64,000 bases of DNA from the NCBI GenBank assembly GCA_963514005.1, contig OY740798.1, positions 51,522,001 to 51,586,000 on the forward strand, given 5' to 3'. The notes beneath the pieces are model-generated. The model saw only the letters and a program-made list of their open reading frames with translations. It did no database searches and was not told where the DNA came from. The DNA is from Raja brachyura. Taxonomy: Eukaryota. The translations under genes and the position numbers were made by a program. Shown here one piece after another: positions 857 to 60,435 of this stretch. Position 1 is the first letter of the stretch; each line of letters begins with the position of its first letter.

Positions 857-1762
857 GAAACATTTCCAGGGACGGGGTCCTGGGTTCACCAGCTCAACGC
901 CTGATGCCTCGTACAACACGACTTCAACTACTGGTTGCCCAGCGACAGCTGAAGCCACATGTGTTTAAAACAGCTGCGCAGAAGCGCATTCAGGAGAAGC
1001 ACAACATTCAGTAGCGCTCCTATGACAAGTCCAGCAAACCACTGAAGCTGCTATTGCAGGGTCCAGTAATCCGTATGCAGACTAATGTGGGACATATCCG
1101 TCTGGGTTTCGTTGTCGGCCCGTCTAAGGAACCCCGTTGCTACCTTGTCAATGCCGATGGTGTTCTGTACAGACCAAGCCGTCAGCATTTGGTGCTTGTG
1201 AACGAACCTCGACCACCTGCAGCTGATCCATATGCTCCACCCCTGCCGTTTAAACTCTCTGCTGCTCCTGCTACCACCACTCCCAGTGTGTGCTCTCTGC
1301 CTCAGTTAGTTACCCCATCTAACCACGTTAACACTCCCGTATGTTCACCCCACCAGTCGCCTCATGCATCCCCAGCTGCATTCTCCTTTTCGGAGTCCTT
1401 GCCCCCCTCCCCCACTAACTTTTCTAGTACGGAGGGAGAGGGGTTTGTCTGCACGTGTTCGGGTCGTATTAGTAGACCGCCTGATAGATACGGCGAGTAC
1501 GTTTAATTGTGTGTGTTTAACATTTGCCTAACAATCTTCTCTTTACGGGGAAGGATGTAGATTGGTTATTGCTTGTGAACCAATCATAGTAGATTAACAT
1601 CACTAACTCCACCTTACTGTACACTTTATATTAACACCTGTGTCCTACATGAAGTAGTCTTGGAAGCGGTAGTGGTGAACTAACAACCTACTGTACGCTC
1701 TACTATATGTTATGATTAAAGATGATTTAAACTTCAGACCGGTGTCTATTAAGTCATTTACA
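857..1762 (+). mobile_element. Gypsy-like LTR retrotransposon 3' end (integrase C-terminal remnant, PPT, 3' LTR)
   Basis: ORF 1054-1506 resembles a Gypsy pol tail (GFVVGPSKEPRCYLV...CSGRISRPPDRY). Purine tract ggggaagga is followed by a TG...CA segment at 1556-1762. Confidence 0.65.
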
Positions 1763-2433
1763 TCTGCTAAATGGCATGAGGGATGCAACGAAAAAAGTTG
1801 AGACTATGCAGAGACTACAAGAGGTGATCAAATGAGGCTGGCCAGAGAACAAGAAGGAATTGACCCAGAACTTATCTCCTATTTCCATGTGAGGGGCGAG
1901 CTGAATGTTGGAGATGACCTCATATTTAGAGGAGAGAGAGTAATCATCCCTAAAGCCAGGAGACGAGACATGATCACACGAGTACATGATTCCCACATTG
2001 GTGTGAATGGCTGTCTGAGAAGGGCAAGAGAACATCTGCACTGGCCTGGAATGAGTGTAGAAATCAAGGACTTTGTACAGAAATGTGAGACATGTCAAGC
2101 TCAAGGGAAAGAGCAACTGAAAGAAACACTGTATTCGCATTAAATTCCAGAGAGTCCATGGGTGAAGATGGGCGCAGATTTGTTCCACTTGGATGGAAGG
2201 AACTATTTGATCACTATGGACTACTTCTCAGGATATTGGGAAATAGACTATCTAGAGAAAATATTGGTATTTAATGTCATCCATAAAATCAAAGGCCAGC
2301 TCGCAAGATATGGAATAGCAGGTCAGCTCATCATAGAGAATGGGCCACAGTTCACAGCTGAGGAGTTCAAGAGATTTGCCGTGAAGTGGCAATTTGAACA
2401 TATGACCACATCACCCCATTATCCACAGAGTAA

Positions 2434-2986
2434 AGGCCCTGTCCTACAAGCATGCAACTCTATGCGATTAGCGCGACCTAACGTGGTCGCTTGAGCCGTC
2501 CGGCGTCGCGGGGCCAGTCCCACTTCGATTGCCGGAGCCGTGCGGAATTGTGCGGAGTTCGTCCCGACATCGCGCGGGGCTCCGAAATACTGACTATGTT
2601 CAAAAATTCCACACGGCAACGGCTTGTCAGCTCGCAGTCGCCTCGACGCATTACACACCGCCCCAACATCGTGCCTCCGTGACCCTCTATGTGTGTGGCT
2701 CCGTGGCTCTCTGTGTGTGTGCCTCTGTGCCCCTCTCTGTGTGCTCCTCTCTGTCCTGGCGAACTTACCTTAGACTTCGCTCCAAGTTCGCCTCACTTTG
2801 CGCCGCGTTGCGCCACTCACCCGACCTCCGCGCAGCCCTCGCTGTCGGTTTGGTCGCGCTTGCCGCATGCAGGCGCATGCTGGTGGGAACGGCCCCGTAC
2901 AGGGGATCACCCGACCTCCGCGCGGCCCCCGCTTCTAGTTTGATCGCGTTCATCGCATAGAGTTGCATGCTTGTAGGACAGGCCCT
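2434..2986. mobile_element. PIF/Harbinger-type MITE
   Basis: About 35-bp TIRs (aggccctgtcctacaagcatgcaactctatgcgat / atcgcatagagttgcatgcttgtaggacaggccct). TAA duplicated at 2431-2433 and 2987-2989. It splits the integrase PQS|NGKAE motif. Confidence 0.85.
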
Positions 2987-3256
2987 TAATGAAAGGCGGA
3001 GAGCAGTGGGAAAGTTGCGAAGTCATTGCTGAGGAAGGCTAAGGCTGCAGGAGCTGACCCTGAGCCTACTGGCTTTTCGCAACACACCAACACCTGGCAT
3101 GAGTAGCAGTCCAGTACAAAGACTGATGAACAGATGTACCAGGACCATTCTACCAACTACTCAGAGGCTGCTCAAACCTGAAATGAAGAAAAAGGTAGGA
3201 GCTGAGTTGAGAGCAGCTAGAGACAGACAAGCAGACTGCTACAACAGCGGATCCTT

Positions 3257-3765
3257 AGTTGCTATTTCTTGCTATTGAGGGAGTGCAGCGTAGGTTTCCA
3301 AGGTTAATTCCCGGGATGGCGGGACTGTCATATGCTGAGAGAATGGAGCAGCTGGGCTTGTACACTCTGGAATTTAGAAGGATGAGAGGGCATCTTATTG
3401 AAGCATATAAGATTGTTAAGGGCTTGGACACACTAGAGGCAGGAAACATGTTCCCAATGTTGGTGGAGTCCAGAACCAGGGGCCACAGTTTAAGAATAAG
3501 GAGTAAGCCATTCAGAACGGAGACGAGGAAACACTTTTTCTCACAGAGAGTGGTGAGTCTGTGGAATTCTCTGCCTCAGAGGGCGGTGGAGGCAGGTTCT
3601 CTGGATGCTTTCAAGAAATAGCTAGATAGGGCTCGTAAAGATAGCGGAGTCAGGGGATATGGGGAGAAGGCAGGAACGGGTACTGATTGGGGATGATCAG
3701 CCATGATCACATTGAATGGTGGTGATGGCTCGAAGGCCTGATCCTGCACCTATTGTCTATTGTCA
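3257..3765 (+). mobile_element. CR1 LINE 3' fragment inside the Gypsy remnant
   Basis: CR1 ORF2 C-terminus (EGVQRRF..LIPGM..RTRGHSL..FFSQRVV.LWNSLP) and a (ctattgt)n tail. Confidence 0.9.
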
Positions 3766-4692
3766 ATTGATCCCAAGATCTGATTCCCCTGAAAGCTGAT
3801 GATCCAGTTTGAGTGAAGCCGACTGGTGACCGACATCAGCCCTGGAGGAAGGCTGTGGATGTAGGCCGTGTGGCACAACCCAGATCGTATGAAGTCAGGA
3901 CCGAGGACGGCGTCATCTATTGTTGGAATCGGCACCATCTGAGGAAGACCAACGAGCCGTTTCATCGTGCTGTTGACCTGGATGACCTGGTGACGTCGCC
4001 TGAACCAGAGCGACACAATCGACATGTGAGCCGACCACCGGTCCCCAGGGAGCATCAAACCCTGACAACAAGATCTGGTAGATGTGTTCAAAAACCACGC
4101 TATCTGCAGGATTATGTGGCCAAATAAGGATAGGGCCTGTACTTGTAGTTGATTATAGATTTAAAAGGCTATTAGGTTATGTTGAAAAAGTTAATGTCAT
4201 ATTGTTCTTTTATAGTTTGATATGCATAGTTTATGTAGAAGTCGTGGTAATGGCCATTTTAAAACTAAATAAGTAAATAAATTTACAAATAAAAAGGGGA
4301 AAGGAAATGAGAAACCAGACATGTGTTGTTCAAAGTTTAGATAATTCCGAGCACTGAACTGCCGCAGATCCAAGGAAGGAGAATTTGGAAGCTACCACGG
4401 AAATGGACTGTCAAATGCATGTTGGAAAATGGACTGTCGGACACGTGTTGGACTCAGTTTATTGCTATACATGTAAAGTGTCTGTACATATGTGTTTTGT
4501 AAACAAAGGGGGATGTTATGGGAATAGCGCCATCGGTGATGCAGTACCCATGATGCAATACCCACGCGCTGCAGCCAAGATGGACCCTGAATACAAATGG
4601 CTGAACGCAAGGCTCGAGTGTAAAGCCTCTGTTAATTAGTTGTGAAGCTGTAATGGAGCAGTTTACAGCAAGGAAACACAATATTAAAACAT

Positions 4693-5368: not shown

Positions 5369-5446
5369 GACAGGTAAATACAACGGACGTTGAAGACCCA
5401 AACCGTACACCACTTATCGCCAAGACGGGCTCACAAACTGCACCAG
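5369..5446 (+). CDS. Putative small phase-1 exon of the upstream paralogue (gene A): xQVNTTDVEDPNRTPLIAKTGSQTAP
   Basis: Acceptor ttgttcag, donor CAG|gtaatt. It is 78 nt, open, phase 1-1, and compatible with the exon at 6426. The sequence is non-repeat. Confidence 0.6.
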
Positions 5447-5481
5447 GTAATTGATTATAGTGGTTAATTAAAATGTATCAA

Positions 5482-5960
5482 TTAATTAAAACCACCCACT
5501 TTTGTATCATCAGCAAACTTACTAACCTTGTCATGTAAGTTCTCATTCAAATCATTGATATAGATGACAAACAGTAACGGGCCCAGCACCGAACTCTGAG
5601 GCCCACCACTAGTCACAGGCCTCCAGTCTGAGGAGCAACCTTCCTCCATCACCCTCTTGCTTCCTTCCATTAAGCCAATTTTCTATCTATTCAGCTATCT
5701 CTCCTTTCCCTCAGAATACTCTCCAGTAACTTTCCAACTACAGATATTAAGCTCACTGGCCTATAGTTCCCAGCATTTTCCCTGTAGCCCGTCTCGAATA
5801 GAGGCACAACATTTGCCGCCCTCCAGTCTTCTGGCACCTCACCTGTATTTAAAGACGATTCATAAATTTCAACCAGGGCTCCCGCAATTTCCTCCCTAGT
5901 CCTCCACAAATATCTTCGGATATATCTGATCAGGCCATGGAGATTTGTCTACCTTTATAC
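5482..5960 (-). mobile_element. CR1 RT fragments
   Basis: GNYRPVSL and SGGPQSSVLGPLLFVIYINDL...SKFADDTK motifs on the minus strand. Confidence 0.85.
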
Positions 5961-6425
5961 ACAATACATTTTGCCCATCAAGTCTACTCCACCTTTCAAT
6001 CATGGCTGGTCTATCTTTCACTCTCAACTCCATTCTCCTGCCTTCTCCCCATAACCCTTGACACTCTGTTCTCTGGTTTTCCTCCCAGATCCCAAAATCT
6101 GCGGGTTGTAGGTTAATTGGCCCTCTATAAATTGCCCCTAGTGTGTCGGGAGTGGATGAGAAAGTGGGATAAGATAGTACAGTGTGAACGGGTGATCAAT
6201 GGCTTCTGTAAATAGCCCTCTAGTGTTCAGGATAGGACTAGTGTACGGAGTGATCACTGGTTGACACGGACTCAAGTAATCAGTGGGTCAAAGGGAGCTG
6301 TACCTCTAAACTAAACTAAATTAAATTAAATAAGTTTGTATATTATGATCAGGGAATAATACACAGTAGTAAAATGGAACATTTTGTTTACATTGCATTT
6401 GATTTTTTTTGTGTCTATCTTTCAG

Positions 6426-6868
6426 CTCCTGCAATTAGTGGTATGAAGAATCAGGATGAAGTCGTACATGGTGAAACTGCTGATGTGAGCTGGGATGTGA
6501 CCATGACTACTCTGCTGCCAATGGATATTGTTATATCACTGAAGAGGGGAGAGCGGAAAACAATTAAATTATTTCACTGGCAGTTGTCGGCAGAACAATT
6601 GCAGGGTCCAAAAAGGGTGACACAACCTCTGAAAACTATACCTCATTCATGCAATCAAGATACCTGTATATCCTTCTCTGCTGATCAGCCTGAATTACAA
6701 ACTACCGATAAGGGTCTTTCACACATTCACTGCTGTATTAAGGTGCAGCCTAATTTATCCACGGACGATGCCGCTCAGATCAATATTGAACACAAATCAA
6801 ACACTCCAGACGCCACTTGTTCTGAAGTGCACACTACAGTCCTTAAAGTTGCCTCATGTAATATCTAA
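6426..6868 (+). CDS. Terminal exon of the upstream paralogue (gene A): disulfide-less C1-type Ig domain
   Basis: T-rich acceptor ...tatctttcag, phase 1. APAISG...VSWDVT...DIVISLKRG...W...IKVQPNLSTDDAAQINIEHKS aligns with the exon at 43645. Ends at TAA 6866-6868. Confidence 0.72.
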
Positions 6869-7239
6869 TAATGCCTTGTACATTCTCATCTAAATCATTG
6901 ATATAGATAACAAACAGCAATGGGCCAAGCACCGATCTGTGAGGCACATCACTAAACAGAGTCTAGTCCAAAGAAACAACATTTCACCATCAGATCCCAA
7001 CCAAACTCAATGTTGTCCAGAGATGCTGCCTGACCCGCTGAGTTACTCCAGCACATTGTGTCCATGTTTTTGTAAACCAGCATCGACAGTCCCCAGTATC
7101 TTCCACCGTCACCCTCTGCTTCAACCATGATTGAATAGTGGAGTAGACTGATGGGCTGAATGGCCTGATTCTGCTCCTAGAACTTATGAATTTCTCAGGC
7201 CAATTCGGCATCCTATACTATTCCTATTCTCTTTACCCC

Positions 7240-9425
7240 TTAATAGACAATAGACAATAGGTGCGGGAGTAGGCCATTAGGCCCTACGAGCCAGCACCGC
7301 CATTCACTGTGATCATGGCTGATCATCCACAATCGGTATCCCGTTCCTGCCTTCTTCCCATATCCCTTGACTCCGCCATCTTTAAGAGCTCTATCCAACT
7401 CTCTCTTGAAAGCATCCAGAGAATAGGCCTCCACTGCCTTCTGAGGCGGAGAATTACACAGACTCATGACTCTCTGGGTGAAAAGGTTTTTGCTCATCTC
7501 CGTTCTAAATGGCTTACCCCTTATTCTTAAACTTTGGCCCCTGGATCTGGACTCCCCCAACATCTGGAACATGTTTCCTGCCTCTAGTGTGTCCAAACCC
7601 TGAATAATCTTATATGTTTCAATAAGATCCCCTCTCATCCATCTAAATTCCAGAGTATACAAGCCCAGCCGCTCCATTCTATCATTATCCTGGGAATGAA
7701 CCTGGTGAACCTATGCTCACTAGCAAGAATGTACTTCCTCAAATTGGGAGACCAAATCAGTACACATTACCGCAGGTGTGGTCTCACTAGGGCTCTGTCC
7801 AACTGCAGAATGACCTCTTTGCTCCTTAATTCTACACCTCTTGTTATGAAGCCCAACGTGCCATTAACTTTCTTCACTGCCTGCTGTACCTGCATGCTTT
7901 CTTTGAGTGACTGATGTACAAGGACAACCAGGTCTCATTGTAGTTCCCCTTTTCCTAACTCAAGATTCAAGAACTTTATTTGTCACATACACATACAGGA
8001 TGAACAGTGAATTGAACGTGGCAATGCTTACGGGATTGTGCAAAACAACAGAACCAGTATTTACAATAAAACAAGAAACAACAATATTTACAATAAAAAT
8101 AAAACACTATTGCAGTAGAAGTGGATATAAATAAAAATAAATAAGTATGTGTATCCATTATAAGTATCTACGTGTGTGTGCATGAGATGGGAAGTATGTG
8201 GGGCATGGCGGGACCCTGGTGGGATCAGTGTTTACAGTCCTGATGGCCTGTGGGTCGAAACTCGGTCTCAGTCTCTCTGTTTTTGCTGCGTGACAGTGGA
8301 GGCACTTGCCTGGCCGCAGCAGCTGGAACCCCCGTTGTTGTGGTGGTCCTTCGTCATCCCCCAGACTCTGGTTCTGCACCTCCTGGTGCATAGGTCCTGC
8401 AGGGCGGGGCGTGTAGTTCCGCAGTTCCGTGGTGCGTACTAGTCGAACGCACTGCTCTGCAGAGCCTTCCAGTCCTCAGCCCTCCTGTCCTGGGTAACTT
8501 GACACCATTCAGATAATAATCTGCCTTCCTCTTCTTGCCACCAAAGTGGATATCCTCACATTTATCCAAATTAAACTGCATCTGCCATGCATCTGCCCAC
8601 TTACCCAACCTGTCCAAGTCACCCTGCATCTTCATAGCATCCTCCTCACAGTTCACACTGCCACCCAGCTTTGTGTCATCTGCAAATACGCTAATGTTAC
8701 TTTTAATCCCTTCATCTAAATCATTAATGTATTTTGTAAATAGCTGCGGTCCCAGCACTGAGCCTTGCGTTACCCCACTAGTCACTGCCTGCCATTCTGA
8801 AAGGGACCCGTTAATCCCTACTCTTTGTTCCCTGTCTGCCAACCAATTTTCTGTCCATGTCAGTACCCTACTCCCAATAACATGTGTTCTAATTTTGCCC
8901 CCTAATCAAAGGTTTTCCTAAAGTCCAGATACACTACATCCACTGGCTCTCCCTGGTCAATTTTCCTAGTTACATCCTCAAAAAATTTCAGAAGATTAGT
9001 CAAGCATGATTTCCCCTTCATGAATCCATGCTGATTCAGACCGATTCTGTTACAGTTATCCAAATGTGCCACTATTTCATCTATTATAATTGACTCCAGC
9101 ATTTTCCCCACCACCAATGCTAGGCAAACTGGTCTATGTCCCTGTTTTCCCTCTCCCTCCTATCTTAAAAAGTGGGATAACGTTAGCTTCCCTCCAATCC
9201 ACTGGAACTGATCCTGAATCTGTAGAACATTGGAAAATGATCACCAATATGTCCATGATTTCTAGAGCCACATCCTTAAGTACCCTGGGATGCAGACTAC
9301 CAGGCCCTGGGGATTTATCAGCTACCAGTCCCATCAGTCTATCCAACACCATTTTCTGCCTAATGTGAATTTCCTACAGTTCCTCCGTCACCCTAGGTCC
9401 TCTGGCCACTCGTACATCAGGGAGA
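7240..9425 (-). mobile_element. Fragmented CR1 LINE with an internal unrelated LINE-type fragment (~7960-8490)
   Basis: KSPGP..LHPRVLK, QHGFMKGKSCLTNL, SGVTQGSVLGP, FADDTK and the CR1 3' tail on the minus strand. Confidence 0.9.
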
Positions 9426-10224
9426 TTGCCCCACACATCTCCTTTAACTTTGCTGTTCTCAACTTAAAGCTCTACCCTCTTTGTCTTTGACATGATTCAT
9501 ATCTAGTTATTCAATGCAATATTATATACAATACTCAGTTACCCCAACTCCCCGCGAGAAGTAGAATACAGAACAGTACAGTACAGGAGCTGGCCTGTGC
9601 CATGATGCCAAGACCATCACATAGCTACCTGCACATAACCCATATCCCTCTATTCCCTGCATATCCATGTGCCTATCCACAAGCCACTTAAATGCCACTA
9701 TCGTATCTGCCTCCATAACTACCCCTGGTAACCCGTTCCAGTCACCCACCACCCACTGTGTATATAACCTGCCCAGCACATCTCCTTTAAACTTTGCCCC
9801 TTTCACCTTAAACCCATGCCCTCTAGTAGATTTTTCCATCCTTGGAAAAAGATTCTGACTTTCTATACCTCTCTTAATTTTAGATATTCTATCAGGAAAA
9901 AAATCTAAAATATGGGGTTGAATTTTCTTTGGAACTTTAGTATTTAATTTTTTCATCCTGGGCAAAAGGTTTTAACTGTCTACACTATTTAGAACTCCTA
10001 TCTCTGGCTCTGATCATTTTCTATCCTTCTACCAGGACAATTCACAAGATGTCAGATTTTCTGTGTGCAACTCCACACATTCAAATTGAGTTGTTGCTCT
10101 TCGTGTGCTCTAATCTGTCAAATCATTTTTTCTAACTGCAAGTACAGATCTTTTACATCTTTTTTAGAACTATATTGTATCTTCTTTTTTGCTCCACCTA
10201 TTGTGCTTGAGTTTGATTGTATTT

Positions 10225-10500
10225 TTAGTTTTAGTTTTAGAGAAACAGGCCCTTCGGCCCACCGAGTCCTCGCCGACCAGCGATCCCCACACATTAACAT
10301 TACCTACACACTAGGGACAATTTCAACTTATACCAAGCCAATTAACCTCCAAGCCTGTATATCTTTGGAGTGTGGGAGGAAACCGAAGATCTCAGATAAA
10401 ACCCACGCTGTCACGGGGAGAATGTACAAACTCCGGACAGACAGCGCCCGTAGTCAGCATCGAACCCGGGTCTCTGGCGCTGCATGTACTGTAAGGCACC
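10225..10500 (-). mobile_element. tRNA-derived SINE with CR1-like tail (HE1-like)
   Basis: B-box-like cccgggttcgat on the minus strand. Body shared with copies at 39202, 41400, 42930 and 59137. Confidence 0.7.
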
Positions 10501-10819
10501 TGATCTGGAAGGATTGCCTGCAAAACAAAGCTTTCACTGTCTTAGTACATGTGACAATAATAAACCTGACCCTAAACCATGTGGTTTTACTGTAGTAAGA
10601 TCTTCTGCCATGAGACACAAGCGCACTTGCTGAATTGTTTCAATCTATATTCTCTGGGTTGACAGAGAGACATTTTGTCCAGTGTGAATAGCCCAGAATT
10701 GTTCATTCGGAAGTCTAGTAAATATTTGTAGCAGGGACGGGATCAGAGGGAATTTGATGTCTAGAGTGATGTATATAACTAAATAACAGTTGTACGTAAC
10801 TTTTGCAACAGCAACATCA

Positions 10820-12557
10820 CCCACTTTAAACTAAATAGTGGAGGGGTGGGGTCAGCAAATTGGAAATGTGAGGGTGGAGTTAAAGAGACAGACAGTGCAG
10901 GAAATGGTGCAGAAGATCCAAAATTAATGGGACGCAAAGTTCAAGAAGGGGTAAGAGAGTACGGTAGGGTAAAATCGGGACTGGTGTGAGAAGGGAGGTG
11001 AAGGGAGGTGAATGCCGAAATAAAGGTCTTGTATTTGAATCCATCGTAGTATAAGAAACAAAGTGGAAGAGCTTGTAGCATAGATGGAGCTTGTAGCACA
11101 GTTGGAGATTGGTAGGTATGATGCTGTGGCAATTACAGGGACGCGGCTACAAGAGGATCGGAGCTGGGAGCTGAATATTCAAGGTTATACGTTCTATCGG
11201 AATGACAAGAAGATACGAAAATAGGTGGAGGGGCAGGTAGTGTAGAGAAAGCAGGGATGCTGCAGAAGGACTTCAACAGGTTGGGAGAATGGGCAGAGAA
11301 GTGGCAGGTGGAATATAGTGTGGCAAATTGTGGAGTCATGCATTTTGGTTGTAGGAATAAAGGCGTAGACTATTTTCTGAAAGGGGAGAGAATCCAGAAA
11401 CCTGCAGTGCAAACAGACTTGGGAGTGCTGGTGCAGAATTCCCAAAAGGTTAATCTGCAAATCCAATGCTAGCATTCATTTCAAAATCTACAGGGATGTA
11501 ATGTTGAGGCTCTGATGTGGCTGCATTAGGAATATTGAGAGCAATTTTGGGCACCATATCTGAGGAAGGATGTGCTGGCTCTGGAGAGGGTCATAGTCAT
11601 AGAGTCATAGAGTGATACAGTGTGGAAACAGGCCCTTCGGCCCAACTTGTCCGCACCGGCCAACATGTCCCAGCTACGCTAATCTCACCTGCCTGCGCTT
11701 GGTCCATATCCCTCCAAAACGGGTCCCATTCATGTACCTGTACCATTCATGTGTCTAACTGTTTCTTAAACATCGGGATAGTCCAAGGCTCAACTTTCTC
11801 ATCTGGCAGCTTGTTCCATACATCCACCACCCTTTGTGTGAAAATGTTACCCCTCAGATTCCTATTAAATCGTTTCTCCTTCACCTTGAACCTATGTCCT
11901 CTGGTCCTCGATTCCCCTACTCTGGGCAAGAGACTCTGTGCGTCTACCCGATCTATTCTTCTCATGATCTTATACACCTCTTTAAGATCATGCCTCATCC
12001 TCCTGTGCTCCAAGGAATAGAGATCCAGCCTATTCAACCTCTCCCTATAACTCGCACCCTCTAGTCCTGGCAACATCCTCGTAAACCTCCTCGGGTCTAG
12101 AGATCTCAGGAATGAGTAGGTTAACCTATGATAAACGTGTGTCGACACTAGGCCTGTACTCGTTGGAGTTTAGAAGAATGAGGAGGGACATCTCTGAAAC
12201 ACACAGAATAGTGAAAGGCTTGGATAGAGTGGATGTGGAGAAGATGTTTCCACTAGTGGGAGAGCCTTGGACTAGAGATCATAGCCTCAGAATTAAAGAA
12301 CGTGCTTTTCAGAACGAGATGAAGAGAAATGTCTTTAGTCAGAGGGTGGTGAATCTGTGGAATTCATTCCCACGGACGGCTATGGAGGCCAAGTCAGTGG
12401 ATATTTTTAATGCAGAGATAGATAGATTCTTGATTATTACGGGTGTCGGAGGTTATGGGGAGAAGGCATGAGAATGGGGTTAGGGAGAGATGAATCAGCC
12501 ATGATTGGCGGAGTAGACTTCATGGGCCGAATGGCCTAATTCTATTCCTATTCCTTA
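10820..12557. mobile_element. Cluster of CR1 fragments in both orientations
   Basis: CR1 endonuclease-start, RT and 3'-end peptides (ORFs 11257+, 11747-, 12112+). Confidence 0.85.
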
Positions 12558-12727
12558 TGCAGATTTTTAGTCCGGTTAAGGCTTCTCTTTTGTGCTCTTA
12601 AAATATTGGTGGGGAACTAGAAAAGTTTGAGATCTGTGATCCAGCTTCTCGGAATGTGTTGGGGTACCTTATCTCAGGCAGTGTTGGCATCATTACATGT
12701 GAGACTCCTTCTTGTGTTTTAATACAG

Positions 12728-12817
12728 AGCTGGATTCAGATGTCACCACAGGAAGTCCTGATGAGGGTGAAAGGCAAGCAAGGAAACTGGAAAATCAAAA
12801 CGCAGTAAAACGGGAAG
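12728..12817 (+). pseudogene. Decayed small exon (xLDSDVTTGSPDEGERQARKLENQNAVKRE) with mutated donor
   Basis: Acceptor cttcttgtgttttaatacag and a 90-nt open phase-1 frame. It is followed by ataatg where the homologues at 15220 and 54393 have gtaatg. Confidence 0.6.
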
Positions 12818-12964
12818 ATAATGTTTTTGCTGAAACATAGAACATAGAACAGTACAGCACAGGAACATGCCCTTCAATGTCTATGCTGAACATGATGCCA
12901 AGGTCATCACTTATCTACCCACACATAACCCATATCCCTCACTCTGTGCATCTACCCGATCTAT

Positions 12965-36362: not shown

Positions 36363-36698
36363 ATTCGTTGGATATGAACATTTTTGCCAGTCCGAAGAAA
36401 GTATTTTTAAAATCAAGTGTTTTGTTGGAATGTAAATTTACTGGGTTTAAAGCACCGCTTGACTTGACAAATGTAGGTGTGCGGTGGTTGTTCGGACCAC
36501 GGAAGGAAGAAATCTATGTTTTTGAAATGGGAGAACATAGGCCCAAGGAACATGGCATAGAAATATCCGGTGAACTATCCAAAGGAGATGCTTCACTTCT
36601 GCTTAATAATGTCCGAGTGGACAACGAAGGGAATTATACTTGCATTGTGTTTGTCACTCCTGAAAAGGCAGAAAAGAGTTCGGATCTGCGAGTTTTAG
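36363..36698 (+). CDS. NCR3LG1: Gene B exon 2: IgV domain, B7-H6-like
   Basis: Acceptor ccatttag, donor G|gtaaaa. VLLECKF...VRW...LSKGDASLLL...DNEGNYTCIVFVTPEKAE resembles B7-H6 GDASL...YRCEVVVTPLKA as recalled. Confidence 0.92.
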
Positions 36699-39675: not shown

Positions 39676-39996
39676 CTCAGCCGAAGCTGCATTTATCCAC
39701 ACAACATGTTACCATTGAGACTGGCGAGGAGAGGCTGGTGACGTGTGATGCTACGGGATTTTACCCTCAGGCACTTAACATCTACTGGGAAAAAGTATCC
39801 AAGGATAAGACTGAGAAACTAAGCCACGATGTCTTCATCACACCTCCAGTTCATAATCCGGATAAAACCTTTAATGTCTCCAGTAGAATGAGAATTGAAC
39901 CAACTCTAGTTGATAATGGCAATGTGTACAAGTGTGTCGTGGAGCATCCAGCAGATGATAACCGTCGCTCGCTCGAGTTGAGACTCACAGTCAAAG
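39676..39996 (+). CDS. NCR3LG1: Gene B exon 3: IgC1 domain
   Basis: Acceptor tttaatacag, donor AAG|gtatgt. VTCDATGFYPQALNIYWEK...NPDKTFNVSS...VYKCVVEH matches the C1-set pattern and B7-H6 (GFYPEAINITWEK...GTFNVTS...YQCVVRH, as recalled). Confidence 0.93.
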
Positions 39997-42293: not shown

Positions 42294-42407
42294 AACCTGT
42301 GGAATATTCGTCAACAGGGGCTATTGTTGCAGTTGTAGTTATTGCATTACTTCTATTCACAATACTTGCCTGTGGACTCTGGGTTTACTTCGTGAAATTG
42401 AGATCAG
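42294..42407 (+). CDS. NCR3LG1: Gene B exon 4: transmembrane segment
   Basis: Acceptor acattccag, donor CAG|gtaata. EPVEYSSTGAIVAVVVIALLLFTILACGLWVYFVKLRS is a hydrophobic helix followed by basic residues. Confidence 0.9.
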
Positions 42408-43231: not shown

Positions 43232-43411
43232 NNNNNNNNNNNNNNNNNNNNNNNNNNNNNNNNNNNNNNNNNNNNNNNNNNNNNNNNNNNNNNNNNNNNN
43301 NNNNNNNNNNNNNNNNNNNNNNNNNNNNNNNNNNNNNNNNNNNNNNNNNNNNNNNNNNNNNNNNNNNNNNNNNNNNNNNNNNNNNNNNNNNNNNNNNNNN
43401 NNNNNNNNNNN
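43232..43411. other. Assembly gap (180 N)
   Basis: Run of N between exon 4 and exon 5. Confidence 1.
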
Positions 43412-43644: not shown

Positions 43645-44082
43645 TTTCTCCAGAGATCAATGGAGCCAATGGACGTCAAACCATGAAACATCATGAAAAA
43701 AAAAAGGCCACTTGGAGTGTTAGTCCATTCCGACCTCGTGAAATTACAATTCACTTATACCTAAAGAGGAAGGGGGATCAGGTGAGAAATCCAATTTTAA
43801 ATTGGAACAGCAAAGAGTATATTCCAGACAGAAATGGAATGATCAATGGAGAGGGTCGCAATGAAGCGAAGATTCTTATGAATTCAAATTGCGTTGATGC
43901 ATCTTTTACACCATTGGATCACGAATATAACATTAATGCAGATGGGACTTACAGTGTGACGATCAATGGAGAAATATATCCAGATGTTAACAAGGATGCA
44001 GGGGCTGAATTAACCATTGAAGTTCAACATAAATCACTGAAACAGCCGATATCAAAGACTTTGATACTGGATGTAAAAGGAG
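43645..44082 (+). CDS. Gene B exon 5: post-TM C1-type Ig domain lacking the canonical disulfide
   Basis: Acceptor tttgttttgactag, donor GAG|gtaaag, 438 nt, phase 1-1. ATWSVSPFRP...NADGTYSVT...ELTIEVQHKSLKQPISKTL. Confidence 0.85.
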
Positions 44083-45434: not shown

Positions 45435-45812
45435 TGCCACCCAAGGTTTTAAACATCTTCAAACCCTCTTGCATCATTCACAATAAATCTGCATCTTTGA
45501 TCTGTTCAATCACTGGGTTTAAACCGAGACCGTTACGTATCACGTGGCAACGAAAGAGAAAGAACATGGAGGCGGAAGAAATAGTTCGAATGGAGGAGGA
45601 CAACAGGACAATTATTCCCGGTGGTGACGGGGAGATGTCCAAATATAAACATTACATCAGTGAGATGAAGCATGATGATGAATCCTACAGCATCACCAGT
45701 GTACTCGTGATAGTGCCTGATATACAGCAAGATCAACACTCGCTTTACACGTGTAAAGTACATCACAGCGGCACCGGTGACCAGGAGAGAGAAATCGAGT
45801 TAATGATTGCAG
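45435..45812 (+). CDS. Gene B exon 6: second post-TM C1-type Ig domain (Cys and Trp retained)
   Basis: Acceptor ttttcttttctcaaag, donor CAG|gtatat, 378 nt. LICSITGFKP...ITW...DDESYSITSVL...LYTCKVHH. Confidence 0.9.
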
Positions 45813-47473: not shown

Positions 47474-48991
47474 AAGAGTAAAAGGATGTACCTTTAGAAT
47501 GGAGATGAGGAATTTCTTTAGTCAGAGGTTGGTGACTCGGTGGAGTTCATTGCTACAGGCAGCTGTGGAAGCCAAGTCATTGGGTTTTTCAAAGCGGAGA
47601 TTTATAGGTTCTTGATTAGCAAGAATGTCAAAGGTTATGGGGAGAAGGCAGGAGAATGTGGTTGAGGGAAAATAGATCAACTATGATTGAATGGCAAAGT
47701 AGACTTGATGGGCCGAATGGCCTAATTTTGCTCCTATAACTTATGAACGTATGAATTATCTAATGATATAGAACGTAGAACAGTACGGCACAACCACTCA
47801 ACCCACAATGTCTGACCAACACTCATCTGCCTGCACATAATCCATATCCCTCCATATCCATGTGCCTATCCAAAAGTCTATTAAATGCCACTATCCTTTC
47901 TGCCTCGACCACCATCCCCGATAACACGTTCCAGACACTCACCCCCTTCAATATTAAAAAAATGGACCCACACATATTCTTTAAAATTCGCCCCTCTCAC
48001 CTTAAAACTATGGCCTCTAGTATTTGATTTTTCTATTCTTTTTTTCCAGACAGAGGCTCTGACTGTCTACCCTATCTAGGCCTCTCCTGATTTTATGTAC
48101 CTCTATCAGGTCTGAGACCTTTTTGACCACCCGATCTACCTGCGACTCCACCTTCAAGGAACCTTGCACCTGAACTCCTAGATCCCTCTGCTCTACAACA
48201 CTCCCCAGAGCCCCACCATTTACTGTGTTGTTCCTGCCCATGTTAGACTTCCCAAAATGCAACATCTTACATTCTCTGTATTAAATTCCATCATCTATTC
48301 CTCAGCCCACCTGGCCAATCGACCCAGATCCAGCTGCAATTCTTCACAACAATCTTCACTAACTGCAAAACCACCCATTTTTTTAACTTATGTTTCTGCC
48401 GACAAGTATAGATCCCTTCATTTATTTTCTTGCATTAACCTTGGAACTATATTCTGCACTCGGTATCTTCCCCTTTGTTCTATCTATTGTACTTGGATTT
48501 GACTTGATTGTGTTTATGCCTGGTACATCTGATCTGGTGGAATTGCTACAAAACAAAGCTTTTCGCTGTTCCCGTACATGTGACAAAAATACACTTGAAC
48601 CTACACCACGTGATTTTACTGCAGTAAGATCTTCTGCCATGAGCCACAAGTGCATTTGCTGAATTGTTTCAATTTATATTCCCTGGGTTGACAGAGAGAC
48701 ATTTTGTCCAGTGTGAATAGCCCAGAATTGTTCATTCTGAAGTCTAGTAAACATTTGCCTTGTAGCAGGGATGGGATCAGAGGGAATTTGATGTGTAGAG
48801 TGATGTATTTAACCAAATAACAATTGTACATAACTTGTTCTGCAGCAACATGCAGATCTTTAGTCAGGTTAAGGCTTCTCTTAGAATCATAGAGTGATAC
48901 AGTGTGGAAACAGGCCCTTCGGCCCAATTTGCCCACACCGGCCAACATGTCCCAGCTACACGAGTCCCACCTGCCAGCATTTGATCCATAT

Positions 48992-49833
48992 AAGGTTCAT
49001 AAGATTCATTTATTGTCACATACACCAGTTGGTGTAGTGAAATTCGAGTTGCCATTGCAGCACGCTAATAAGAATACAACATAACATTATAAAGAAATTT
49101 AACATAAAACATAAAAACATCCCCCCACAAAGGTTCCCACTGTGGGGGAAGGCACAAAGTCCAGTCCCCACCCCCTTGTCCACCCATAGTCGGGCCTATT
49201 GAGGCCTCTGCAGTCGGCACTACGGGGCCCGATGTTCCAGGCCCTTCTCGCCGGGTGATGGTGCTCCGGCGACGGGAGAACCCTCACAGCGGCTCAGGGT
49301 GCCTGTAACGGCAGCTTCCTTACCGGAGACCGCAGCTACCGAAGCCAACAGGCCGCGCTGGATGGAGCTCCACCACTGGTGATCTCAGCGAGAGATCCCA
49401 GGCTCCCGGTGTTAAAGTCAGCACCGCCGCCCGTGGCTGGCCGCTCCACAGTCCCGCAGCTCCACGATGTTTGATCAGCGGTCTCAGCATTCCGGAGCTC
49501 CAGCGCGGTGACCCGGGCAAGGCATTGCGAGCTCCGCGATAGCGCTGCGCTGCCGCTGAAGCTGTGGTTCTGGCCGGTCCACTCAGGAAACGCTGCTCCA
49601 GACCCGATGGCAGGCTGCGAGGACGGGTCGAAGTTGCTGCTCAGAGGAAAGCTGCCTCTCTGACAAGGTAGGGACTGAGAAATACAGTTTCCTCCTCCCC
49701 CCCCCCCACACCCCCACACATAAAAGAATAGACCTCCAAACAACACTATTTAACGTACTAAAAATTTTAAAAAGGAGTGAAAGGACGGACAGCTGCAGGC
49801 AGGGCAGCCATACCCAACTGGACTGCGCCCCCA
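48992..49833 (-). mobile_element. Non-autonomous retroelement inserted in a CR1 tail
   Basis: Absent from duplication copy A. LINE-like 3' end (tgtgacaataaatgaatc on minus), GC-rich body, short atat duplication. Confidence 0.65.
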
Positions 49834-50029
49834 ATATCCCTCTAAACCTGTCCTATCCATGTGCCGGTCTAACTGCTTCTTAAATGTTGGGATAGTTCCT
49901 GCCTCAACTGTGTCCTCTGGCAGCTTGTTGCATACACCCACATGCAAAATTTCTCTTTGCCATTGTGTAGGAAGGAACTGCAGATGCTGTTTTAAACCAA
50001 AGATAGACTGTCTGAAGATGGGTCTTCGA

Positions 50030-51470
50030 CTTTGGATCAGTCTTCACTAAAGATGACACAAACAATCTCTCTGATGTACTAGTGGATCTGGGGTGACGAA
50101 GGAACTGAAGAAAATCCACATTAGGCAGGAAATGGTGTTGGGTAGACTGAAGACTGATAAATCCCAAGGGCCCGATGGTCTCATCCCAGGATACTTAAGG
50201 AGGTAGCTCTGGAAATCATAGGCGCATTGGTGATCATTTTCCAATGTTCTGTAGATTCAGGATCAGTTCTTGAGGGTTGGAGGGGAGTTAATGTTATCCC
50301 ACTTGTTAAGAAAGACGGGAGAGAGAAAACAGGGAATTATAGACCAGTTAGCCTGACATTGGTGGTGGGAAAGATGCTGGAGTCAATTATAAAAGATGAA
50401 ATAGTGGCACATTTGGATAGCAGTAGCAGGATTGGTCCGAGTCAGCATGGATTTACGAAGGGGAATTCATGCTTGACTAATCTTCTGGAATTTTTTGAGT
50501 ATGTAACCAGGAAAATGGACAAGGGAGAGCCAGTGGATGTAGTGCACCTGGACTTTCAGAAAGCATTTGATGAGGTCCACATAGGAGATTAGTGGGAAAA
50601 ATGAGAGCACATGGTATTGGGAGTAGAGTGCTGACATGGATAGAAAATTGGTTAGCAGACAGGAAACAAAGAGTAGGGACCCTTTCAGAATGGCTGGCAG
50701 TGACAAGTGAGGTGCCGCAGCTATTTATAATATACATTAATGATCTAGATGAAGGAATTCAAAGTAATATTAGCAAATTTGCAGATGACACAAAGCTGGG
50801 TGGCAGTGTGAACTGTGAAGAGGATGCCATGAGGATGCAGGGTGACTTGGACAGGTCGGGTGAGTGGGCAGATGCACGGCAGATGCAGTTTAATGTGGAT
50901 AAATGTGAGCTTATCCAGTTTGGTGGCAAAAACAGGAAGGCAGACTATCATCTAAATGGTGTCAACTTGGGAAAAGGGGAAGTACAATGGGATCTGGGGG
51001 TCCTTGTTCATCAGTCACTGAAAGTAAGCATGCAGGTACAGCAGGCAGTGAAGAAAGCGATAACAAGAGGAGTTGAGCATAGGAGCAAAGAGTTCCTTCT
51101 GCAGTTGTACAAGGACCTGGTGAGACCGCACCTGGAGTATTGTGTGCAGGTTTGTTCTCCAAATTTGAGGAAGGACATTCTTGCTATTGAGGGAGTGCAG
51201 CGTATGTTCAGCAGATTAATTCCTGGGATGGCGGGACTGTCATGTGTTGACAGAATGGAGCAGATGAGCTTGTAACAGTGCCTCAGAAGGAGGAGGAGAC
51301 CGGTTCTCTGGATGCTTTCAAGATCGAGCTCGTAAAAATAGTGGAGTCATGAGATATGGAGAGAAGGCAGGAACAGGGTACTGATTGTGGATGATCAGCC
51401 ATGATCACATTGGATGGCGGTGCTGGCTCGAAGGGCCGAATGTCCTACTTCTGCACCTATTGTCTATTGT
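50030..51470 (+). mobile_element. CR1 RT and 3' end
   Basis: ORFs 50227 and 50592 with NYRPVSLT, QHGF, YINDL, KFADDTK. Confidence 0.92.
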
Positions 51471-51894
51471 CCCGAAATATTACCCATTCCTTCTCTCCAG
51501 AGATGCCGCCTGTCCCGCTGAGTTACTCCAGCTTTTTGTGTCTATATTCTCTTTACCATTTCCATCTTGACAATATCTTTCCTATAGCATGGTGCCCATA
51601 ACTAAACACAATAATCGAAATGCGGTTTCACCAACGTCTTATACAACTGCAACATGACCTAACTTCTCAATACTCAGACTGATCAAGGCCAATGTGCTAA
51701 AGTCATTTTTGACCTCCCGATCGATCTGCGACCCTACCTTCAAGGGACCATGCACCTGCACTCCTAGATCCCTCTGCTCTACAACATTCCCCAGAGCCCA
51801 ACCATTCACTGTGTCGGTCCTGCCCAGGTCAGAATTCCCAAAATACAACACCTCGTTCTCTGTATTAAATTCCATCAATCATCCCTCGGCCCAC

Positions 51895-53710
51895 CAGGTG
51901 CAGGAGTAGGCTATTCGGCCCTTTGAGCCAGCACTACCATTCACTATGATCATGGTTGATCATCCAAAATCAGTACCATGTTCTTGCTTTTTCCCCATAT
52001 CCCTTGATTCACTTAGCCCTAAGAGTTAAATCTAATTCTCTCTTGAAAACATCCAGTGAATTGGCCTCCACTGCCTTCTGTGGAGAGAATTCCAAAGAAT
52101 CACAGCTCTCTGGGTGAAAATGTTTTTCCTCATCTCAGTCCTAAATGGGCTACCCCTTATTCTTAAACTGTGACCCCTGGTTCTGGACTCCTCCAACTAC
52201 CCCAACATTGGGAACATTTTCCCTGGATCTATCCTGTCCAATCCTCCAAGAATTTTACATGTTTCTATCAGATATCCTCTCATCCTTCTAAATTCCAGTG
52301 AATACAAACCCAGTAGACCCATTATTTCATCATCTGCCAGTCCCGCCATCCCGGGAATTAACATGGTGAACCTATACTGCACTCCCCAAATAGCAATAAT
52401 GTCCTTCCTCAAATTACGAGACCTAATTTCCACACAATACTCCAGGTGCGGTCTCACCAGGGTCCTGGACAACTACAGTAGGACCTCCTTGCTCCTAAAC
52501 CCAAATCCTCTTGCTATGAAGGTCAACATGCCATTAGCTTTCTTCACTGCCTGCTGTACCTGCATGCTGACATTCAGTGACTGATGTACAAGCACACCCA
52601 GGTTTTGTTGCACCTCCCCTTCTAATCTGACACCATTCAGATAATAATCTGCCTTCCTGTTCTAAACACCAAAGTGGATAACCTCACATTTATCCACATT
52701 ACACTGCACCTACCATGTATCTGCCCACTAGCCCAACCTATCCAAGTCACCCTGCAGCCTCATAGCAACCTCCTCTCAGCTCACACTGCCACCTAGCTTT
52801 GTGTCATCCACAAACTTGGAGATGTTACATTTGTCTAAATCGTTAATATATATTGTAAATAACTGGGGTCCCAGCACTGAGCCTTGCAGCACCCCACTAG
52901 TCACTGCTTGCCATGCTGAAAAGGATCTGTTAATTCCTACTCTTTGCTTTCTGTCTGCCAACCAATTTTCTATCCATGTCAATACCCGACCCCCAGTACC
53001 ATGTGCTCTAATTGTACACTAATCTCTAGTGTGGGTGCTTGTCAAAGGCATTTTGACATTCTAGATTTACTTCATGAACTGGCTCTCCCTTATCCATTCA
53101 ATTTGTTACATTCTCAAAAAATTCCAGAATATTAGTCAAGCAGGATTTCCCCTTCATAAATCCATGCTGACTTTGACCGATCCTGTCACTGCTTCCCAAA
53201 TGCTCTGCTATTACATCTTTAATAATCGACTCAAGCATCTTCACCATTACCGATGTAAGGCTAACTGTTCTATAATTCCCTGTTTTCTTTCTCCCTCCTT
53301 TCTTAAAAAGTGGGGGTACATTGGCTACCCTTCAGTCCACGGGAACTGATCCAGAGTCTATAGAACATTGGAAAATGATCACCAATGCATGCACGATCTA
53401 TAGGGCCACCTCCATGAGTACTCTGAGATGTAGACCATCAGGCCCTGGGGATTTATCTGCCTTACCTAACACCGTTTTCTGACTAATATGGATGCCCTTC
53501 AGTTCCTCTCTCCCACTAGATCCTCAGTCCCCTGGGGAGATTATTTGTGTTCTTTTTTTCCCCTCTTAATTAACCCCTTTGTCCTCCCCTGTTGAGTTCT
53601 AAATTTCTTCTGGTTAGCCGCTCCTCCTGGCCAATTTATATGCCACTTCCCTGGATTTAACACTATCCTTGACTTCCCTCGCCAGCCACGGTTGAGCCGC
53701 CTTCCCAGTT
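51895..53710 (-). mobile_element. CR1 ORF2 fragment
   Basis: RT and C-terminal motifs on the minus strand. Confidence 0.9.
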
Positions 53711-54301
53711 TTAGGGGGGATGTTTCCACTGGTGGGAGAGTCTAGGACTAGAGTTCATAGCCTCAGAATTAAAGGATGTTCTTTTAGGAAGGATATGAGG
53801 AGAAATGTCTTTAGTCAGAGGGTGGTGAATGTGTGGAATTATTTGCCACAGAAGGCTGTTAGTGGATATTTGTAAGGCAGAGATAGATTCATGATTAGTA
53901 CAGATGTCAGTGGTTATGGGGAGAAGGCAGGAGAATGGGGTTAGGATGGATTGATATATCAGCCATGATTGAATGGCACAGGGGACTTGATGGGCCAAAT
54001 GGCCTAATTCTACTACTACCACATAACCTTATGGCCTTATGACTAGCAGGGATGGAAACAGAGGAAATTTGATGTCTAAAGTGATGTATTTAACTAAATA
54101 ACAATTGTACGTCACTTTTGCAGCAGCAACATGCAGATCTTTAGTCAGGTTAAGGCTTCGCTTTTGTGCTCTTAAAATATTGGTGGGAAACTACAAAAGT
54201 TCGAGTCCTGTGATCCAGCTTTTCGGAATGTGTTGGGATACCTTATCTCAGGCAGTGTTGGCATCATTACACGTGAGACTCCTTCTTGTGTTTTAATACA
54301 G

Positions 54302-54392
54302 CACCGGATACAGATGTCACCACAGGAAGTCCCGATGTGGAGCATAAATCAAGCTAGGAATCTGGAAAATCAATATGCAGGAAAACAAGAAG
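54302..54392 (+). CDS. Candidate small/alternative exon of gene B (APDTDVTTGSPDVEHKSS*), +1 nt relative to the 12728 copy
   Basis: Intact acceptor cttcttgtgttttaatacag and donor AAG|gtaatg. It is 91 nt with an in-frame TAG at 54355-54357. Confidence 0.5.
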
Positions 54393-54529
54393 GTAATGCT
54401 TCTGCTGAATCATAGAACATAGAACAGTACAGCACAGGAACAGGCCCTTCAGCCCACACTATTTGTGCCGACCATCACTTATGATGCCGACCATCACCTG
54501 CACATAACCCATATCCCTCCATTCCCAGT

Positions 54530-57460
54530 ATAGAAACATAGAAAATAGGTGCAGGAGTAGGCCATTCGGCCCTTCGAGCCTGCAACTCCATTCAATATGA
54601 TCATGGCTGATCATCCAACTCAGTATCCTATACTTGCCTTCTCTCCATACCCCCTGATCCCTTTAGCCACAAGGACCACATCTAACTCCCTCTTAAATAT
54701 AGCCAATGAACTGGCCTCAACTACCTTCTGTGGCAGAGAATTCCAGAGATTCATCACTCTCTGTGATGAAAAATGTTTTCCTCATCTCGGTCCAAAAGGA
54801 ATTCCCCCTTAGTCTGGTGAACCTTCTCTGTACTTCCTCTATGGCAAGAATGACTTTCCTCAGATTTGGAGACCAAAACTGTATGCAATACTCCAGGTGT
54901 GGTCTCACCAAAACCCTGTACAACTGCAGTAGAACCTCCCTGCTCCTATACTCAAATCCTTTTGCTATGAATTCTAACATACCATTCGCTTTTTTCACTG
55001 CCTGCTGCACCTGCATGCCTACTTTCAATGACTGGTGTACCATGACACCCAGGTCTCGTTGCATCTCCCCTTTTCCTAATCGGCCACCATTCAGATAATA
55101 GTCTACCCTCCTGTTTTTGCCACCAAAGTGGATAACCTCACATTTATCCACATTATACTGCATCTGCCATGCATTTGTCCACTCATCCAGCCTATCCAAG
55201 TCAGCTTGCAGCTGCCTAACATCCTCCTCACACCTAACACTGCCCCCCAGCTTTATGTCATCCGCAAACTTGGAGATGTTGCATTCAATTCCCTCGTCCA
55301 AATCATTAATATATATTGCAAATAGCTGGGATCCCAGCACTGAGCTTTGCAGTACCACACTAGTCACTGCCTGCCATTCTGAAAAGGACCCGTTTACTCC
55401 TACACTTTGCTTCCCGTCTGCCAGTCAATTCTCTATCCACATCAATACTGAACCCCCAATACCGTGTGCTTTAAGTTTGTATACTAATCTCTTATGTGGG
55501 AACTGGTCGAAAGTCTTCTGAAAGTCTAGATATAACACATCCACTGGTTCTCCATTATCCACTCTACTAGTTACATCCTCGAAAAATTCTATAAGATTCG
55601 TCAGACATGATTTACCTTACGTAAATCCATGCTGACTTTGTCCAATGATTTCACCATTTTCCCAATGTGCTACTATCCCATCTTTAATAACTGACTCTAG
55701 CAGTTTCCCCACTACCAATGTTAGACTAACTGGTCTGTAATTCCCCATTTTCCCTCTCCCTCCTTTTTTAAAAAGCAGGATTACATTAGCTACCCTCCAA
55801 TCCTCAGGAACTACTCCTGAATCTAAAAAGTTTTGAAAAATTATCACTAATGCATCCACTATTTCTGTGGCTGCTTCCTTGAGTACTCTGGGATGCAGCT
55901 TATCTGGCCCTGGGGATTTATAGGCCTTTAATCCATTCAATTTACCCAACACCACTTCCCGGCTAACCTGGATTTCACTCAGTTCCTCCATCTCATTTGA
56001 CCCCGGTCCCCTGCTATTTCTGGCAGTCTTCTTTAGTGAAGACAGAACCAAAGTAGTTATTCAAATGGTCTGCCATGTCCTTGTTCCCCATGATCAATTC
56101 ACCTGTTTCTGATTGCAAGGGACCTACATTTGTTTTAACTGATCTTTTTCTCTTCACATATCTATAAAAACGTTTATAGTCAGTTTTTATCTTCTCTGCC
56201 ATTTTTCTTTCATAATCTATTTTCCCTTTCCTAATTAATCCCTTTGTCCTCCTCTGCTGGACTCTGAATTTCTCCCAGTCCTCTGGTAGGTTGCTTTTTC
56301 TGGCTACTTTGTATGCTTCATCTTTACATAGCAGCATACCCATGTTTCTATCCAAAAGCCTCTTAAACACCACTCCCTCACCGTCCCTGGCAGCATGTTC
56401 CAGACATTCACTTCCTTCTGTGTAAAAAATAACTTGGAGAGACTGGAGAAATCTATCGGCGGGACTCCGAGTTCAGCAGTCTGATGGTGTTATTGTAGAA
56501 GCTGTTCCTCATCCTACTAGTGCGGCACTAGGCTCCTACATAGAAACATAGAAACATAGAAAATAGGTGCAGGAGTAGGCTATTCGGCCCTTCGAGCCTC
56601 CACCGCCATTCAATATGACCATGGCTGATCATTCAACTCAATATCCTGTTCCTGCCTTCTCTCCATACACCCTGATCCCTTTAGCCACAAGGGCCACATC
56701 TAACTCCCTCTTAAATATAGCCAATGATCTGGCCTCAACTACCTTCTGTGACAGAGAATTCCAGAGACTCACCACACTCTGTGTGAAAAATGTTTTCCTC
56801 ATCTCGGTCCTAAAGGAATTCCCCCTTATCCTTAAACTGTGACCCCTTGTTCTGGACCTCCCCAACATCGGGGAACAATCTTCCTGCATCTAGCCTGTCC
56901 AACCCCTTAAGAATTTTGTAAGTTTCTATAAGATCCCCCCTCAATCTTCTAAATTCTAGCGAGATGTAAAGTCATTCTAGTCATAGATGTAAAGAACTTG
57001 TACTTCCAGGGAGATTGTATTTGAACAACCAGACATGACATGCGGAAATGTACTTTTAGGTGAATGATTATTCTAAACTCCCAATGCACAGATGAAAGGC
57101 CCAAGAGATGGGACGGGGGGGGGGGGGGGGGAAGAGGCGTGGGGTGGTGGTGGGCTGGGTGTGCGTGTTGGGGAGAGAAGGAAGAAAAAGAATGCAAGAG
57201 AGAGAACAGTTAACAGCTCCAAGTAAATCTAATCTAACATAGAACATAGAACATAGAAAATAGGTGCAGGAGTAGGCCATTCGGCCCTTCGAGCCTGCAC
57301 CGCCATTCAATGTGATCATGGCTGATCATCCAACTCAGTATCCCGTACCTGCCTTCTCTCCATACCCCCTGATCCCTTTAGCCACAAGGGCCACATCTAA
57401 CGCCCTCTTAAATATAGCCAATGAACTGGCCTCAACTACCTTCTGTGGCAGAGAATTCCA
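54530..57460 (-). mobile_element. CR1 ORF2 copy plus two further young CR1 3' ends
   Basis: ORFs 54717-, 55617-, 56014-, 56638-. Near-identical (catagaaa)n-tailed ends at 54530, 56540 and 57240. Confidence 0.9.
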
Positions 57461-60304: not shown

Positions 60305-60435
60305 CATCAAATCCAACGGGAATACAAGTGGAAGCAAAATACAGCAAAGCAGAAAATAATTTTAAATCACAGAATCAGGAAGAGAAAGGGGAAAAGAATC
60401 AGAAAATGACTGAGAACAAAGAAGAAAAGAATTGA
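60305..60435 (+). CDS. Probable terminal exon of gene B: charged tail ASNPTGIQVEAKYSKAENNFKSQNQEEKGEKNQKMTENKEEKN*
   Basis: Acceptor ctttccttgtgttaattcag; purine-rich non-repeat sequence open in phase 1 to TGA 60433-60435. Confidence 0.55.

Follow-up and report, generated by a model that had tools for sequence, protein, structure and literature searches.

Disulfide-free immunoglobulin domains in the predicted cytosolic tails of B7-H6-like proteins of cartilaginous fishes

The 64,000-nucleotide stretch of the skate Raja brachyura analyzed here (contig OY740798.1, positions 51,522,001 to 51,586,000; hereafter the window) carries on its forward strand two neighboring members, A and B, of a gene family whose products resemble B7-H6. 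A signal peptide, a V-set domain, a C1-set domain, and a single transmembrane (TM) segment of type I are encoded by the exons of the downstream gene B and are likewise present in the orthologue of the upstream gene A from Rhinoraja (LOC144602449; P0025). Behind the TM segment, both genes have an immunoglobulin (Ig) domain, encoded by a single exon (exon A in gene A and exon 5 in gene B; Table 1), without the cysteine pair of the canonical fold. The feature is real: these genes and their relatives make up a B7-H6-like family whose post-TM Ig domain has no disulfide and is not covered by Pfam.

Exon A and gene B exon 5 encode long-diverged paralogues, 20% identical, and profile comparison with HHalign relates them with a probability of 98.3%; they share phase 1-1 and measure 432 and 429 nucleotides (nt). 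Structure prediction with AlphaFold2 (AF2) combined with fold searches yielded an Ig β sandwich for each. The diagnostic residues of exon A are Trp22 (at 6491), Ile36 (at 6533), and Ile120 (at 6785). Analysis of conservation across 53 distinct domain sequences, taken from 20 database proteins and the two exons of the window, revealed that the position of the B-strand Cys is occupied by Trp in 49 (Cys in 2, gap in 2) and that of the F-strand Cys by Ile in 26, Val in 23, and Leu in 3 (gap in 1). An F-strand Cys was found in 0 of the 52 scored domains and a B-strand Cys in 2 of 51; the B-F disulfide of the C1 set is absent. The C-strand Trp of the C1 set is likewise missing from all 53, with T, L, I, V, S, or F in its place. 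The domains of A, B, and Callorhinchus share further noncanonical features, namely, Arg40 (53/53), a C'-strand Trp51 (52/53), and a DxGA-type E-F loop, which are absent from C1 controls. The Callorhinchus domains match both exon A and the B exon (HHalign probabilities of 100% and 99.8%) and, at 95.6%, the C1 domain of the family's own ectodomain, versus 11% for its V domain. This profile link, although indirect, makes a C1 origin of the disulfide-free domain likely. Partial Cys loss, e.g., C..M and C..F, is also seen in post-TM B-type C1 domains.

Searches with exon A using phmmer retrieved 16 representatives; the ten that were looked up come from Heterodontus, Rhinoraja, two Scyliorhinus species, two Mobula species, Stegostoma, Hemitrygon, and Callorhinchus. 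Amblyraja, Leucoraja, Carcharodon, Cetorhinus, and Pristis were contributed by additional searches, for a total of 14 named cartilaginous fish species, including the holocephalan Callorhinchus; all members of the family whose names were inspected are annotated as "uncharacterized." Two weak nonchondrichthyan matches were discarded. Word-index searches in which the top 8,000 candidates were scored returned no bony-vertebrate match to the Trp-type domain, which we found only in chondrichthyans. Chordate clusters of 811 to 982 amino acids (aa) with V and C1 domains in the Atlas (scores of 0.96 to 0.97, one named LOC101734363) hint that long V-plus-C1 forms exist beyond this group, so that other vertebrates may have a long architecture of this sort as well.

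In full-length members, a leader-V-C1-TM module is followed by one to eight Trp-type domains (seven in Heterodontus, eight in Carcharodon and in one Callorhinchus model). The seven to eight tandem copies per protein in P0024, P0047, and P0044 are near-identical, which points to very recent exon duplication or homogenization. The long B-type orthologues (P0001 to P0003 and P0052) possess five to seven post-TM Ig domains, graded from those with both Cys to those with one or none, as well as short acidic repeat exons, and in Amblyraja and Leucoraja the V-C1 ectodomain is doubled. In a domain tree of 42 rows, built with near-identical repeats omitted and no outgroup sequences, the 16 rows of the A type and the 5 rows of the B type each fall into a clade of their own, with support of 100/100 and 100/99; the Callorhinchus domains fall outside both, and the deep branches are unresolved. 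The Rhinoraja orthologues of gene A and gene B (LOC144602191) lie on equally long contigs, as do three Callorhinchus loci, which indicates linkage, not adjacency.

An earlier note on this DNA had taken the two exons for paralogous Ig domains of a tandem gene family, in which the replacement of the cysteines was ancestral and retained. The AF2 models bear out the Ig fold on which that reading depended, and the profile match, together with the common phase and the near-equal lengths, bears out the paralogy. A tandem family is supported by the adjacency of A and B in the window and the linkage of their Rhinoraja orthologues. Since Trp prevails at the B-strand position, in combination with Ile, Val, or Leu on strand F, in elasmobranchs and a holocephalan, and neither an F-strand Cys nor a C-strand Trp occurs in any of the 53 domains, the disulfide loss is ancestral and not a product of decay. 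What that interpretation had missed is the likeness to B7-H6, the location behind the TM segment, and the internal position of the exon.

The affinity to B7-H6 emerged from phmmer searches against PDB, in which B7-H6 was the top match (E value of 2.5e-23, versus 9e-14 for CD276 and 2.6e-10 for TAPBPR; in a second search, 4e-32 versus 1.4e-17), and NCR3LG1 is the name of an Atlas cluster with a score of 0.94. Human B7-H6/NCR3LG1 (PDB 6YJP, 4ZSO, and 3PV6), the best solved-structure match for the orthologues of both A and B, is likewise a type I protein with a signal peptide and V and C domains. The tails differ. Those of 17 TM-bearing members of the fish family contain no match to the pattern of an immunoreceptor tyrosine-based inhibitory or activation motif (ITIM or ITAM). 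By "Gag," in connection with the human tail, we take retroviral Gag to be meant. A published account gives the human tail as Gag-homologous, with ITIM-like and SH2- and SH3-binding motifs (PMC11476788), whereas the tail in cartilaginous fishes consists of one to eight Ig domains and acidic repeats and shows no such Gag-like or ITIM-bearing form. The genes encoding B7H6 are said, in work by Flajnik et al. from 2012 and by Ohta and Flajnik from 2015, to form expanded clusters in Xenopus and sharks that coevolve with NKp30, and the locus in the window is probably such a cluster. According to a further paper, NCR3LG1 clusters near TAPBP/TAPBPL (PMC13262535).

The same 17 TM-bearing proteins, which are related and thus supply consistent rather than independent evidence, were used to predict membrane topology. 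Each has a single hydrophobic peak after the leader, scoring at least 2.07, with the next best behind it reaching at most 1.40, and in each the net charge is higher behind the TM segment than before it. Glycosylation sequons involve 58 of 211 Asn residues (27%) before the segment and 70 of 509 (14%) behind it, the latter being about the frequency of S plus T (15%). Basic residues flank TM segments on the inside (the positive-inside rule), and the cytosol is reducing. On the basis of these patterns, the post-TM Ig domains are predicted to be cytosolic in a type I topology, where a structural disulfide would not be formable; this location would explain its loss.

Outside the present family, C1-set domains normally occur only on the exterior of antigen receptors, MHC molecules, and a few relatives, and to our knowledge it is very unusual for an immune surface protein to have Ig domains facing the cytosol. 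The exon A type resembles the C1 set in having one phase 1-1 exon per domain and in its B-C and D-E loop motifs but differs in lacking the B-F disulfide and the C-strand Trp, in its long C-C' hairpin and an insertion, and in its length (~143 versus 106 aa). Butyrophilins, with their V-C-TM-B30.2 architecture, also have a folded domain in the cytosol and a B7-type ectodomain, but here the module is a C1-derived Ig domain and not B30.2. In titin and other Ig proteins of the cytosol, too, the fold is stable in the absence of the canonical disulfide, but their domains belong to the I set and are no part of a surface receptor. UrIg and UrIg2 of elasmobranchs also join a V domain to repeated C1 exons of plastic copy number (PMC12227049), and UrIg-related 9DMX matches the post-TM C1 domains of P0003 (E value of 3e-17). 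The UrIg2 repeats described there, however, precede the TM segment and all have the disulfide and the Trp, whereas those discussed here follow it and have no disulfide.

The linker exon of gene A corresponds to residues 269 to 293 of P0025, directly behind the TM segment of that protein (residues 239 to 259). The frame of exon A is open over 143 codons, and its indels relative to P0025 are all in frame. The earlier note had gene A end in the Ig domain. The domain itself and its paralogy to the B exon stand, but as a trait of the family the terminal position does not hold: all A-type relatives inspected run on past the domain, the exon being internal in them; it has a conserved donor (CAT/GTAATA at 6857); and a tail exon follows at 12728. 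Joining 6857 to 12728 creates a TAG, and without splicing the frame stops at 6866 to 6868, so that the protein of this copy would end at the Ig domain either way. The stop would be a derived state of the window's gene A, a tail-shortened copy.

Gene B encodes a product of 591 aa. Its exon 7 has 91 nt versus 90 in the gene A counterpart, the extra base shifting the frame, and the resulting stop lies 35 nt ahead of the last junction. The gene is a short form, in that A-type tail DNA follows exon 6, versus further C1 exons in orthologues of 1,100 to 1,300 aa. P0013, a 270-aa protein on a 1,143-nt contig from a Leucoraja cluster, joins exons 5, 6, 7, and 8 of the gene B form in order and therefore looks spliced, which suggests that a related skate transcribes the short form. 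Blocks within 10497 to 15362 match 48115 to 54532 at 81 to 95% identity (12557 to 12876 versus 54131 to 54451 at 89% and 13721 to 14585 versus 48115 to 48991 at 95%), while the A and B Ig exons have diverged far more. The likely origin of the short form, judged from this shared 3' DNA, is recent unequal exchange or conversion between the neighboring genes. An assembly gap of 180 N at 43232 to 43411 falls in the gene B intron that separates exon 5 from the TM exon.

Table 1. Exons and exon remnants of genes A and B, with positions counted from the first nucleotide of the window
Feature	Position	Strand	Evidence
Gene A linker exon, 78 nt, phase 1-1	5369..5446	+	AG/GT sites; 72% identical to P0025 269-293
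Gene A disulfide-free Ig exon (exon A), 432 nt, phase 1-1	6426..6857	+	76% identical to P0025; AF2, fold search
Gene A tail-repeat exon, 90 nt	12728..12817	+	93% identical to P0025 560-587; acceptor intact, donor AT for GT
Degenerate third copy of tail-exon unit, body mostly deleted, near 15184	15060..15309	+	blastn, 85-89% identity
Gene B exon 1, leader	24992..25133	+	73-90% identical to N termini of P0001-P0003; CAG/GT
Gene B exon 2, V-set domain	36363..36698	+	Pfam V-set, E 8e-10
Gene B exon 3, C1-set domain, canonical Cys pair and Trp	39676..39996	+	Pfam C1-set, E 1e-13
Gene B exon 4, TM segment, basic residues behind	42294..42407	+	Translation; matches TM of P0001-P0003
Gene B exon 5, disulfide-free Ig domain, 429 nt, phase 1-1, paralogue of exon A	43654..44082	+	
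Gene B exon 6, post-TM C1 domain keeping both Cys and Trp	45435..45812	+	Pfam C1-set, E 1e-12; 83-91% identical to orthologues
Gene B exon 7, A-type tail exon, 91 nt, in-frame stop at 54355	54302..54392	+	89% DNA identity to 12557-12876; matches P0013
Gene B probable last exon, 3' end undefined	60305..60420	+	89% identical to last 18 aa of P0013

Elsewhere in the window, a near-full-length L1-type long interspersed nuclear element lies between the two genes (16793 to 22126, forward strand), with an open reading frame (ORF) 1 of 309 aa and an ORF2-like frame with two stops; a second, broken ORF1-like L1 fragment occurs at 61080 to 61730 on the same strand. Fragments of a long terminal repeat retrotransposon occupy 900 to 4130, with integrase-like frames at 1802 to 2494, and are broken up by other repeats.

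It is fairly probable, in our judgment, that these genes encode B7-H6-like surface ligands whose predicted cytosolic tails of stacked, C1-derived, disulfide-free Ig domains act by protein contact. A phase 1-1 C1 exon of the ectodomain type would have been placed behind the TM exon before the holocephalan/elasmobranch split. With the disulfide unable to form in the reducing cytosol, a purely hydrophobic core of Trp, Ile, and aliphatic residues would have been selected, the new B-strand Trp taking up the room left by both the disulfide and the C-strand Trp, each now lost. Duplication of the exon, one to eight times per gene, would have followed, and the genes themselves would have been duplicated in tandem. 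The ectodomain would bind receptors of the NKp30/NCR3 family, and the tail, tuned by copy number, would provide docking or clustering in scaffolding, oligomerization, or trafficking; given that it has neither an ITIM nor an ITAM, it would act by protein-protein contact.

Several observations weigh against this picture. Neither exon A nor gene B exon 5 has a match in Pfam; the predicted folds rank nearest V-type domains, a likeness due to the long C-C' hairpin; and direct HHalign comparison with C1 gives 2.8% for exon A (44% for gene B exon 5). The V exon alone matches CD276 and B7-H6 about equally well, with CD276 slightly ahead, and the counts over the 53 domains are not independent because these are related. 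Gene B exon 6 retains both Cys behind the TM segment, and later domains of the long B-type orthologues keep one or both, so that a cytosolic site does not force Cys loss. Of the 53 domains, 44 have a conserved E-strand Cys, and a loop Cys occurs only ever alongside it (30 domains with both, none with the loop Cys alone, and 13 and 8 in the remaining classes; 51 scored); the two could form a noncanonical disulfide or a metal or lipid site. The leader, V, C1, and TM exons of gene A fall outside the window, and the contig of run X7, which equals 6386 to 6900 with 0 differences, says nothing about transcription of this copy of exon A. Last, the full-length architectures are NCBI predicted gene models.

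Some of these points could be read differently. That loop Cys A75 and E-strand Cys A102 form a disulfide in domains that function extracellularly or in the lumen of the secretory pathway, by way of TM-skipping isoforms or an unusual topology, would fit the strict dependence of the loop Cys on its partner, the canonical pair kept in some post-TM C1 domains, and the sequon present in many domains. We nevertheless regard this as improbable, since 17 of 17 proteins have one TM segment with positive-inside flanks, sequons behind it are at background, the segment precedes the domain in all full-length models seen, and 21 of the 51 scored domains, including all five of the B type, are without the Cys pair. 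The dependence of the architecture on automatic annotation, together with models that have neither leader nor TM (P0027 and P0028), might suggest that the post-TM exons belong to cytosolic or dead genes in their own right, which gene prediction has joined to B7-H6 genes; the recurrence of the TM-to-Ig order in 17 proteins of skates, rays, sharks, and a chimaera, the uniform phase 1 of the exons, and the distance of only 1.2 kb, with intact splice sites, from the TM exon of gene B to its exon 5 make such an artifact extremely improbable.

Two further alternatives concern the history of the exons. The Cys-to-Trp change requires a single base (TGY to TGG) and could have arisen independently in the A and B lineages; two Callorhinchus domains with a B-strand Cys and the lack of resolution in the deep part of the tree leave room for this. 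As the Cys-bearing domains group with Trp-bearing ones (86/94) and still have no F-strand Cys, and A, B, and Callorhinchus share Arg40, Trp51, and the E-F loop, convergence is very improbable. Decay or nonexpression of gene A in this genome, in a family otherwise as described, is unlikely but deserves more weight. The last exonic base of the donor at 6857 is T, versus G in 8 of the 8 other intact donors listed; splicing there creates the TAG; the tail exon has AT for GT; its third copy is degenerate; the terminal branch of exon A measures 0.21, versus 0.058 for the Rhinoraja orthologue; and exon A departs from the family at 18 of 59 conserved columns. Set against this are its fully open frame with in-frame indels, the intact acceptors and donors of the linker exon and exon A, the 14 departures in the orthologue itself, and the similar branch of gene B exon 5 (0.2). 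Decay of this copy would in any case leave the ancestral nature of the Cys loss untouched.

Our literature search, which included PMC10751288, PMC6514059, and PMC3964593, found no description of these domains; the 2012 and 2015 papers mentioned above lay outside its reach and may mention them. Papers retrieved by phrase for Ig domains in the cytoplasm or inside the cell were all unrelated. More tentatively than for the cytosolic-tail reading itself, we raise the possibility that chondrichthyans retain, as the signaling tail of their B7-H6 genes, an undescribed set of Ig domains missing from Pfam that are cytosolic, of C1 origin, and built on a Trp-for-disulfide core, with exon duplication driving the change in copy number (one to eight), and that such an Ig tail was ancestral in jawed vertebrates and later replaced by a Gag-like tail in humans. 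If the proposed tail is real, its domain would constitute a natural disulfide-free Ig scaffold kept since the split of holocephalans and elasmobranchs, of relevance to intracellular antibody design, and would offer a handle on the role of B7-H6 tails and on the NKp30-B7-H6 system in early jawed vertebrates.
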